A stretch of 54,620 nt of DNA, counting the filler, from Porpidia crustulata (taxonomy: Eukaryota): the NCBI GenBank assembly GCA_964255105.1. It is 4 parts of 4 records of this genome, joined end to end, with 100 filler letters (N's around TTAATTAATTAA, not from the genome) between each part and the next. Parts side by side here need not be neighbours in the genome. Positions count along the whole stretch, not along the records: positions 27,385 to 40,966 come from CAXUWE010000431.1; 3 more parts are not named here. The stretch is one strand, 5' to 3'. Below the pieces are notes generated by a model that saw only the letters and a list, made by a program, of their open reading frames with translations, was not told where the DNA came from and did not search any database. The position numbers and the translations under genes were made by a program. Positions 27,486 to 40,073 of the stretch are shown here, piece by piece (within the stretch, counting starts at the first letter, position 1; every line of letters begins with the position of its first letter).

Positions 27486-29561
27486 TTAGACGATGTCGCT
27501 GCCGTGCACATGCGCCTTCCCATTCGCCAAACCATTCAACATGGCCCCAGCAGCAGCGGTCCCGTTCACCTTGGCCCCGAAAGAAGAATTGGTAGCGTTC
27601 GCATATCCGTTCGCCTTGTTGGCCACGAACTTTCCCTTCGCGTTTCCGTTCGCTCCGTATACATGTCCGTTCGCCTCGCTCCCCTTCCGCCTCGCCTCCG
27701 CCTCCAGAAACTCGTCAATCAGGCCCCGGTAATCGCTGGGCCGGTACGGCGCAAACATTTCGGCCACGAAATTGCGTTTGCGGTTGGTCTTGATGCCGAG
27801 GTCGCGGGCGAGGGTGTCGATATACTATTCCCTTTATAGTTAGCCAAGGCTTTTCCTCATAGCAAAGATAGGGGGAAAATGGGGGGGAGGGGAAGTGAGG
27901 AAGTTGAAAGGCTCACGGCGATATAGTCATAAATAGCGTAAGCGTGTTTCCGCCCCTGCTCTAGGTACCGCTTTCTAGTCCAGGCGTTCCAAGTCGCCAC
28001 CTCCCGCTCCATAGTTCCTTGGTCAGGCAGATTGAGTCGTCCGAGCATGAAAGCAACACCCCAGAGTGCTTGCAGCTCTGCGACGAGGGGGGTGTAGACA
28101 CTGTGGATGAGGCCGGGGAAATAGATGCTGCGGTCGCCCTGGGCCGCCATACTTGGCGACACCAACCAGCGGTACAGCCGGCTTGGCCGTTTCTTGTTAC
28201 TGCCTCGGTTTGTGATAGGTGGGTGTTTGAGCAGGGGCAACATCTCGTTCACCACCAGCTCGCCCTGAGCGTCCAGCTTTGTCCATTTAGGATCGAGGTT
28301 GTCATTAATTGGGAGACCGTACTGCGCACGCAAGTCCTCGCTGAAAGTATTGAGATTGTGCGTGAAGCCGGTGCAGAGGATGACGTAGTCGGTGTTGAGC
28401 CGTATGCCGTTTGCGAGGTTGATGCGGTTACCGTGAGAGAAGGAGGCGATTTCGGTGCGGTGGACGGCGCATTTGCCGGCGTGAAATGTTTTCCAGAAAT
28501 GGGGGACAGAGGCAAGGCCGAGGCCGGCGTTGGCCCAGAAGATTCTGTTGAGAGAATCAGATAACGTGGACTGTGAGTTTAGAGGGAGTAGAGAGGAGAT
28601 GGAAAACGCACCCATAGCCATAAGGGATCGGTCGCAGCTTCCGGGCGTTAGGTGATTTGGAATAACCGGCGTACCATTCGGCGATGCGTGTTACGTTTCT
28701 CCAGAAGGTCTTCGTGATGACCCGACCAACTTTGGTCTTATGAAGGAACTTGTGCCAGGTCCCCTTTGTGGACATGATTGCAGGGCTGAAGCTCGCCATG
28801 GCTCTGGTGGCCATGACGTCTACCGTATTGAACATGCCGAAAAGACGAGGAGGCATGATTGCCAGCGGGCCTGTGCCGTCTTCTCGGATGATCCAGTCTA
28901 CTTGCACTCCTTGTTTGAGCAGGAGGAAAACCGTATCGTAGGAAGACTTTGCGGCACCAACGACAGTTGCTCGTTTGATGCTCTTGAGTTCTTCCAGAGA
29001 GGTGCCGGTCTGAGATGAATGAATGATTGGCCTTGTGAAATTCTCTTTCGGCCATGACGGAATATATGGATATGAAGTAGCGCCTGTTGCATAGATGAGC
29101 TTTTCGGTTCTGATCGATGGTGCTCCAGCGATAGATAATCTCCACCCATCCTGATCTAAATTCTCTACATTGGTGACAGTTGTTTCTAGACGAATTCGAC
29201 GGACCAGGTCATAATCCCTGGCAAAGTCGTTGAGGTAACTGTTTATGGTCGTTCCGGGAATGTAGCGATCTGGACTTATATCCACATTCTTCATGGGGTA
29301 GAAGGAGTACTCGAAAAGTCCGTAGCCAATTTGGGCAAATAGATTTGGATAGATTTTTTCTTTACTCCAAACACCCCCGATGGATTTTCCATCGTCAACG
29401 ATCAAGAGGTTTGTCTTCGGTGCCAATCTCAGGTACGTCGTCGCTGCTATCAGCCCGTTCCATCCTAGCCCCAGATCAGTAGAGCTCGAAACGTAGCAAC
29501 TCAAGTGTAGCTAACCTGAACCTACAATGACAACATCCAATTGCTCTTCCTCTATGATCAT
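27486..29561 (-). CDS. Class B flavin-dependent monooxygenase (FMO-like; DEP4-like), about 621 aa (introns 29515-29465, 28611-28545, 27916-27825)
   Basis: VVIVGSG|WNGL FAD motif, SIGGVWS, YATG, FTRPIIHSSQ (FMO fingerprint-like), VVGAAKSSYD NADPH motif, ILCTGF. Spliced length 1866 nt keeps the frame. Confidence 0.9.
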
Positions 29562-30086
29562 TTTGCTGAGAGAAACAATATGAGGGAACAAAGCAAAAGG
29601 AGAAACCGCAAATTGAAATTGGAACGCACAGTAATCCGAGGATGGAGACAGCGGACAAGGAGGGAATTGATGTGCCGCATATAGCAGAACCAGCTGCACA
29701 GCTGCATTACACTGGCTATACCAGCGAATTGATCCACTTGGCTTACTAAGACGGGCTGTCTATCAGGAAGTCCCCCATTGCCATTTACCGCGCGCAAAAA
29801 GCCGTTTCTGTCGGACATGGATTTGGCGGCTCCGTTCGTGCGTCCGCACCAACATGCTGACCGTGACACTCAACACGAACTTTGTTTCGACCACGGCCGT
29901 TGGACTCCGTCTCCGCGCATTACGTCGAGTATCTTTTCGCCTCGGACTTCCTTTCTCAATCTTTTCAGCTCGTACCTTAGTACTATACTACCCTAAATCT
30001 GACAGCCTGAATTGTGCATCTTCCGTGCGTCAGTCTTCTTTCGCTCTTGTTTTTGGTGGACGAGAAATCGCCCAATTATCCTGACC
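29562..30086. promoter_or_regulatory. Divergent promoter shared by the monooxygenase and the membrane-protein gene
   Basis: 525 bp between head-to-head ATGs; CGGAC/GTCCG half-sites at about 29812, 29842 and 29943. Confidence 0.6.
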
Positions 30087-38500: not shown

Positions 38501-40073
38501 CGACTGCCCAAGAATGCTGGAGATATATCGCGGCATTTGGTCGCTTTGTTGACTCGGGCAGGAAGAACGTGCTCAAGAGAAGCGTGGTTGAAACAGTTCC
38601 CCTGCACCGCGGGGCCAATTATTTGTCTTTCGATCTGCTAGACATTTACGAATGGAAACCACAGATACTTGGAGATCTCTTTCGGCTTACGATGTCCCTC
38701 TACCGCCGACGGGTAATCTCGCCGCTAAGATCGAGCACTGAAGTCAACATTGCCGATATCGATACTGCCGTGGCGTCTTTCTCCGATGACTTCGCCTCTG
38801 ACAAGATCCTCATGTCTTACAAGCCGTCCGAGATCCCATTGCAGCTTTTGCCTCGTCGCCCTTCGCTTAAATTCCGAGCAGACGCGAGTTACCTCTTGGT
38901 GGGTTGTCTGGGTGGACTTGGACGAAGCCTGACGTCGTGGATGATAAAGAAAGGAGCAAGACGGTTTACTTTCCTGTCGAGGTCAGGTACTGATTCCGAG
39001 CAAGCTGCGATCCTTGTCAAAGACATTGAAGCCGCTGGTATCACTGTTCAAGTGATCCGAGGTGATGCGACGGTCAAAGCAGATGTCGAGCGTACAGTCA
39101 AGAGCATCCCTACGAAAGCTCCGATTCGTGGTGTTGTTCAAGCAGCTATGGTTTTGAGAGTACGTTTCATACTATCGTCTTCTGAGTGCACATTAGCTAA
39201 TCGGAGATCTATCAGGATGGTCTCTTCGAAAATATGCCCTATAGCAGCTGGGTCACCTCCACTCGACCAAAAGTCCAAGGTACCATGAACCTCCACTCCG
39301 CTCTCCAACACACCCCTCTCGACTTCTTTGTCACAACCAGCTCTACGTCCGGCACGCTCGGTACCCCCGGCCAATCAAATTATGCCGCTGGTAATGCCTT
39401 CCTCGACTCGCTCTCACGCCATCGCCTCGCCAACTCTCAACCCTCCGCTTCCCTCATCCTCCCTATGGTCCTCGGTGTCGGCTACGTTGCCGAGCATCCT
39501 GAGGTTGAAGAAGCCCTGAAACGTAAGGGCGTTTACGGAATCGATGAAGAGCATCTCCTCGAATCATTCGAGGTCTCGATGGCCGTTCAAGAGCAAAAGA
39601 ACTCTGCAGATCACGTCGTAATTGGCATGGACCCCTCGAAGCTTCAAAAATCCCTCAACGAGGCCGCTACAACCGACGGATTTTGGATGGACGATGTCCG
39701 CTTCTCTCACCTCATGCACGCCATGAAATCCGTCGGTGCCTCGTCATCTAGCGGCTCCGGCCAATCCATCCTTGCGACCATCAAGTCCTCTGCAGACGCC
39801 GCCGACGCCGTGCTGGCCGCAAGCGACCATTTTGTGGAGAAGCTGTCACGGCTCCTGATGGTACCGTTGGATGAATTCGAACCGGACGTCAAGGCGATTG
39901 CAGACTACGGGTTAGACAGTATGATCGGCGCCGAGCTGAGGAACTGGATCTTCAAGGAGTTTGCTCTGGATATCCCGTTCCAGCAGCTTTTGGGGCCCGG
40001 GCTAACGGTGACGAAGTTTGCGGAGCAGGTATGTGCGAATCAAGGAATTGCTGTCGAGGTAGCTGCGGCCTAG
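32595..40073 (+). CDS. Highly reducing iterative type I PKS, KS-AT-DH-(relic MT)-ER-KR-ACP, about 2395 aa (introns 32778-32837, 33620-33671, 33901-33955, 34080-34147, 39160-39215)
   Basis: [112 protein letters not shown]. Spliced length 7188 nt is an intact frame. Confidence 0.96.

Follow-up and report, generated by a model that had tools for sequence, protein, structure and literature searches.

The ascomycete Porpidia crustulata (assembly GCA_964255105.1) carries on one contig a flavin monooxygenase (FMO) gene, a gene for a membrane protein and a gene for a highly reducing polyketide synthase (PKS), which an initial annotation had read as a rearranged, minimal version of the depudecin pathway of Alternaria. 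The question raised by this locus is whether three genes make up the whole pathway, or whether they are part of a larger cluster that the assembly has cut. The window analysed, 54,620 nucleotides in length, consists of four contigs joined by N linkers; the trio lies on one whole contig, C431 (27385-40966, 13,582 bp), of a fragmented assembly (G000; 22.9 Mb in 2447 contigs). We moderately favour the view that a widespread depudecin-like family shares this trio as its conserved core, the cluster being cut here by the contig ends, with additional genes on a second contig, C1272, and without a close DEP2 orthologue. The locus is an ordinary, intact member of the depudecin-like family and is not uniquely rearranged.

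The three spliced gene models (Table 1) contain no internal stops, all nine introns have GT..AG borders, and dS is far above dN in comparisons with related loci (for the PKS against locus L006, dN 0.15 and dS 1.75). The three genes are intact and under purifying selection and, as first described, nearly fill the contig. The FMO and membrane-protein genes are divergent, and the PKS gene follows the membrane gene on the same plus strand. The initial annotation was also correct in that C431 carries no transporter, regulator or second oxygenase; no open reading frame (ORF) of at least 120 amino acids was listed on C431 beyond the trio or its opposite frames. This says little, because the contig breaks off just 101 bp beyond the FMO stop and 893 bp beyond the PKS stop.

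The relationship to the depudecin system is seen most directly in the FMO, which shares 51% identity across 551 amino acids with DEP4 of Alternaria brassicicola (DEP4_ALTBR), in agreement with the DEP4-like identity proposed for it before. Its FAD, fingerprint-like and NADPH motifs align with those of DEP4, and its nearest solved structures are Baeyer-Villiger and flavin monooxygenases (E 2.6e-9). In a quick tree of 74 sequences, built from the FMO itself, 15 loci and 58 of 120 proteins listed as matches, it is placed inside a 45-member group with DEP4 (support 99) and outside a 39-member group that holds DEP4_ALTBR (support 100). The relatives of the FMO include one from Chaetomium. The C-terminal tail (27490-27680) is of low complexity, with short repeats, and is poorly conserved among relatives. 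Two FMO paralogues of the same genome (C2316 and C785, 31-36% identity) were rejected as cluster parts, their neighbouring genes being unrelated.

The PKS shows the domain order KS-AT-DH-(remnant cMT)-(probably inactive ER)-KR-ACP, with the catalytic motifs of KS, AT, DH, KR and ACP all present. There was no Pfam match to a methyltransferase in this protein, and no thioesterase or reductase release domain. Measured against the canonical motifs, that of the cMT is degenerate, and that of the enoylreductase (ER) is degenerate across the whole clade: the ER histidine is found in 26 of 119 relatives and is missing here. Moreover, the ER diverges faster than KS, AT and KR, with 45-54% identity to three full-length relatives compared with 77-81% for the KS. 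The enoylreductase is thus probably inactive, and since its motif is degenerate and the domain diverges faster, the sequence suggests a polyene product. A FastTree phylogeny of 69 sequences, comprising this PKS, 26 of the 79 loci described below and 42 of 120 proteins listed as matches, places our PKS in a 54-member group (support 100) along with three proteins to which their sources give the name DEP5 (58-61% identity). The 120 proteins listed of 3836 PKS matches do not include Alternaria DEP5 itself, so the DEP5-like character claimed initially is upheld by proxy, through this clade and the likeness to a Stereocaulon alpinum PKS considered below. Among the matches listed, the closest named relatives come from lichen formers (64-66%), and many lichen-former genomes contain PKSs of this type. 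In the own genome KS matches lie on 25 contigs, one of which is of DEP5-like type; the next best reach 42-44% over the full query.

In the membrane protein eight hydrophobic segments were recognised. The protein matched no Pfam family, and pieces of its homologue family gave nothing beyond weak DUF2834 matches (6 of 40, best E 0.016). Across 34 homologous sequences four acids are nearly invariant among the homologues covering each site: D65 (18/18), E107 (16/17), D295 (33/33) and E361 (29/29). AscI, which is related to CtvD and AurD, has eight helices and no Pfam family, and its activity needs D61, E103, D296, E353 and D355 (PMC6486709). The four acids of our protein correspond to D61, E103, D296 and E353 of AscI by position, not by alignment. 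Because these near-invariant acids sit at AscI catalytic-acid positions, the protein probably opens epoxides, by analogy with the membrane epoxide hydrolases CtvD, AurD and AstD (PMC12312803), and the CtvD-type assignment made at first sight can be retained. Identity to the membrane genes of L013 and L017, two loci with an FMO nearer to DEP4, is 36-37%, and none of 18 matches to the protein is named DEP1. A profile search against solved structures gave one designed-protein match, which we judged meaningless, and an ESM Atlas search led to ascomycete clusters and again to a weak DUF2834 lead. A link to EXPERA/EBP isomerases was dropped, being unsupported in the paper checked. A paralogue of the same genome on C856 (26-31%; L093:1549-2814) was likewise rejected as a cluster part, its neighbours being unrelated; it has an LQYD motif and no accompanying PKS, and is flanked by housekeeping-type genes.

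Is the arrangement of the three genes unusual? A KS-exon scan of metagenome contigs, a sample biased towards close relatives, returned 79 loci, 17 of which hold all three genes: nine in the same order and orientation as C431, four with the membrane gene flipped and four with the PKS in the centre (six, four and two, respectively, when near-copies are merged). The gene order of C431 is the commonest of the family in this sample, which contradicts the description of the locus as rearranged. In four named genomes the locus tags put FMO and PKS two genes apart. The trio recurs, with its order unchanged and at about 90% DNA identity, on contigs of sequencing runs X3 and X4, which reach some 2.1-2.5 kb beyond the PKS and less than 0.9 kb beyond the FMO; run X1 stays inside C431. 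Flanking genes were collected as ORFs of at least 130 amino acids within 10 kb on each side of the KS exon (16 loci, 111 ORFs). Five of these loci have an MFS transporter, three a DUF2855 gene, two transcription-factor domains and one a FAD_binding_3 gene; an NAD-binding protein is encoded in L037, L040 and L042, and a CLC channel in L037 and L042. Since the flanking ORFs differ among the 16 loci, it is the trio that stays constant as a core, accompanied by extra genes that vary. In two different types of cluster the DUF2855 gene adjoins the DEP5-like PKS (L006:15952-17253, L008:16928-17737, L017:19956-20780), and no solved relative of DUF2855 was found. L006 is the closest metagenome locus (PKS 77%); it has kept the membrane gene and the PKS, and AT-rich decayed repeat DNA (L006:1-5000) stands at the position of the FMO.

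The missing extras of C431 are most likely to be sought on C1272, a contig of 7.6 kb in the same genome with an MFS, a CLC and a DUF3237 gene, homologues of which flank related clusters. The MFS is the best match in the genome to the FMO-adjacent MFS of L010 (E 5e-94, versus 4e-42 for the next). It is intact (560 amino acids, seven exons) and shares 57% identity with the MFS of L015 and 57-60% with FMO-adjacent MFS genes of relatives. The contig was not picked by its other two genes: the DUF3237 gene is 53% identical to a gene lying tail-to-tail with the FMO in L007, and the CLC gene 42-50% identical to a gene after the PKS in L037, L038 and L042. Of the flank genes from eight loci, six matched C1272 and two C476, compared with none or one for each of five control contigs; within this count the matches of the C1272 MFS and the C476 monooxygenase hold by construction. 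Judged from these similarities, the MFS, the DUF3237 gene and perhaps the CLC gene most likely lie on C1272 as the rest of the cluster, which makes the epithet 'minimal' unproven and probably wrong. The DUF3237 gene is cut by the end of C1272 (L091:7201-7634), and its remainder is not among the three matches in the genome; DUF3237 genes recur beside related clusters (L007:3911-4450, L044:18561-18980). The CLC gene beside the MFS (L091:430-2850) is divergent, and with six CLC matches in the genome the family looks expanded.

Several points weigh against this interpretation. No exact end overlaps of at least 8 bases were found between C431, C1272 and C476. The CLC match is ambiguous, with C2128 (53%, 4e-82) close to C1272 (51%, 4e-86), and so is the side of the join: the DUF3237 and MFS genes suggest the FMO end of C431, the CLC gene the PKS end. 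As the assembly is fragmented, it may lack a DEP2 orthologue that the genome has. The names DEP1, DEP2, DEP3, DEP5, DEP6 and CtvD rest on proxy sequences, ER inactivity is judged from motifs, and the PKS has no domain that would account for release of the chain.

One alternative extends the cluster to a third contig, so that a full depudecin-type set would be spread over C1272 (DEP3-like MFS), C431 (DEP4, DEP1 and DEP5) and C476 (a FAD-dependent monooxygenase as DEP2 and a Zn2Cys6 factor as DEP6); the product could then be a bis-epoxide close to depudecin. The initial annotation had raised the possibility that missing genes lie beyond the contig ends, and a search of the own genome for DEP2, DEP3 and DEP6 counterparts agrees with this in part, with the MFS on C1272 and the Zn2Cys6 factor on C476 as candidates. 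The latter is the best match in the genome to the factor of L017 (49%, the next 35%), and C476 holds the sole match to the DEP2-like gene of L010. For DEP2 the candidate is weaker: this match, the best in the genome, reaches only 34%, and no close DEP2 orthologue was found in G000 among 20 FAD_binding_3 matches, with 18 of 40 candidates scored. The C476 monooxygenase is 29-39% identical to the L010 gene, whereas published DEP2 matches from other fungi reach 44-50% (PMC6177402, PMC8620734), and a FAD_binding_3 gene flanks just one of the 16 loci scanned. A weak regulatory hint comes from CGGTCCG, which ranked first among the 7-mers when 14 promoter regions from related clusters were compared (present in 7 versus 0.7 expected, weak enrichment in partly homologous regions); one copy of it lies about 370 bp 5' of the C476 monooxygenase, near the contig end; in a scan with training and test regions kept apart, one copy among the four promoters is close to the chance level (control 0.049 per kb). 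With the contigs also lacking overlap, we consider the three-contig cluster unlikely.

Alternatively, the trio might be a stand-alone pathway, with C1272 and C476 situated elsewhere in the genome. L037, L040 and L042, which are among the closer relatives in the FMO and PKS trees, show no MFS, FAD_binding_3 or transcription-factor domain for about 5 kb past the FMO and 1-3.6 kb past the PKS; those flanks carry only the NAD-binding protein, plus the CLC in L037 and L042. The NAD-binding and DUF2855 genes gave no match in G000 with one query each. Such a pathway is nevertheless doubtful in Porpidia, given three different flank-type genes together on 7.6 kb of C1272 and contig ends too close to show absence. 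That the locus is a decaying or silent remnant without a product, as truncated depudecin clusters in Fusarium (PMC5996196) and the AT-rich repeat DNA at the FMO position of L006 might suggest, is very improbable in view of three intact reading frames, nine intact introns, dN far below dS and the preservation of the trio in the X3 and X4 contigs.

For the conserved core with its extras on C1272, the following route can be proposed. The PKS, whose motifs are present, would assemble a short unmethylated polyene chain. The FMO may then epoxidise one double bond, a role proposed because the core has no other oxygenase. The membrane enzyme, through its four conserved acids, might protonate and open the epoxide as in AscI, CtvD and AurD, giving a diol, a tetrahydrofuran or, with loss of CO2, a vinyl carbinol resembling one end of depudecin; the MFS would export the product. 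Depudecin is an 11-carbon polyketide (PMC10989895), which therefore requires the loss of one carbon, and a 3,4-epoxy acid opened with decarboxylation could yield its vinyl carbinol end. The Porpidia core most likely makes a short oxygenated polyene that is akin to depudecin without being identical to it; the position of the FMO outside the Alternaria DEP4 subclade sustains the earlier suggestion of a related and probably distinct compound.

A bolder proposition, to which we attach little credence, would make DEP4, DEP1 and DEP5 an old module that is self-sufficient and common in lichen-forming fungi. In it the FMO and the membrane acid catalyst would together free the chain, by epoxidising it and opening the epoxide with decarboxylation, to give odd-carbon vinyl-carbinol polyenes, and depudecin would be a decorated offshoot. 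If this were true, DEP1 would receive its first function, release without a thioesterase would be explained, and an unrecorded class of lichen metabolites would come into view, possibly directed at the chromatin of the algal partner, or chlorinated where a CLC channel accompanies the cluster. The trio could serve as a compact test system for the product of the core, the function of DEP1-type proteins and odd-carbon chain release without a release domain. We found no paper on the product of such a trio in a literature search that left outside most subscription journals, two key depudecin papers included.

The remaining features of the window are given in Table 1. The repeat downstream of the PKS has seven other copies in G000 at 75-85% identity and is possibly a small non-autonomous element. 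The other three contigs (1-27284, 41067-54620) encode GH18, short-chain dehydrogenases, Utp11, TAF9, lipin, a MIT-domain protein and a histidine phosphatase, and are unrelated to the cluster.

Table 1. Features of contig C431, in coordinates of the window
Feature	Position	Strand	Details
Class B flavin monooxygenase, DEP4 family	27486..29561	-	exons 29561-29516, 29464-28612, 28544-27917, 27824-27486; 621 aa
Divergent promoter region common to FMO and membrane gene	29562..30086	.	sequence; divergent layout likewise in 9/17 three-gene loci
Eight-helix membrane protein, probable CtvD/AurD/AscI-type epoxide-opening enzyme (DEP1-like)	30087..31261	+	exons 30087-30445, 30496-31261; 374 aa
CGGTCCG x3 5' of PKS (32000, 32157, 32301), candidate Zn2Cys6 binding sites	32000..32307	.	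7-mer enrichment, weak
Highly reducing PKS, DEP5-like clade	32595..40073	+	exons 32595-32777, 32838-33619, 33672-33900, 33956-34079, 34148-39159, 39216-40073; 2395 aa
Dispersed repeat of ~160 bp, outside pathway	40742..40900	.	other copies in G000; 12-nt inverted arms

How does the locus compare with known systems? With CtvD, AurD, AstD and AscI its membrane protein shares eight helices, the lack of a Pfam motif and acids at matching positions (PMC6486709), and enzymes of the CtvD/AurD/AstD type act on epoxides of polyene polyketides (PMC12312803). The partners differ: the citreoviridin and aurovertin pathways combine a CtvC/AurC monooxygenase, a pyrone-forming PKS and an O-methyltransferase, whereas C431 has a class B, DEP4-type partner. 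In the aureonitol cluster a reducing PKS and flavin monooxygenases lead to a polyene of odd carbon number that carries a tetrahydrofuran and ends in an alkene. This cluster is CHGG_00239-00246 of Chaetomium globosum (PMC6904875), and literature searches found no sequence link between it and the C431 trio.

A closer counterpart is Sta_05184 of the lichen Stereocaulon alpinum, a reducing PKS (KS-AT-DH-ER-KR-ACP) labelled 'similar to depudecin PKS', whose cluster is linked to BGC0000046 in the supplement of PMC8262933; 44 of 60 KS residues, counted by eye, are identical to those of the C431 PKS. The possibility that such a pathway was undescribed in this lineage is weakened by this published cluster. 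The neighbours of Sta_05184 do not appear in the matching parts of the supplement. Sta_05184 has been treated as a singleton and a likely recent transfer (PMC8262933), but PKSs of this type occur in many lichen-former genomes.

Partial depudecin-like clusters are known from several fungi (PMC8620734, PMC6177402, PMC10989895, PMC5996196). The trio differs from the depudecin cluster of Alternaria brassicicola (DEP1-DEP6, MIBiG BGC0000046) in that its FMO falls outside the DEP4 subclade, a close DEP2 match was not found, and the membrane gene stands between FMO and PKS. In Alternaria the order is presumably DEP1-2-3-4-5-6. The DEP cluster is reportedly widespread and patchy in its distribution, with gene loss. 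What the two systems have in common is a DEP4-family FMO, a domainless membrane protein, a PKS in one well-supported clade with source-named DEP5 proteins and, on C1272 of the same genome, a DEP3-like MFS.

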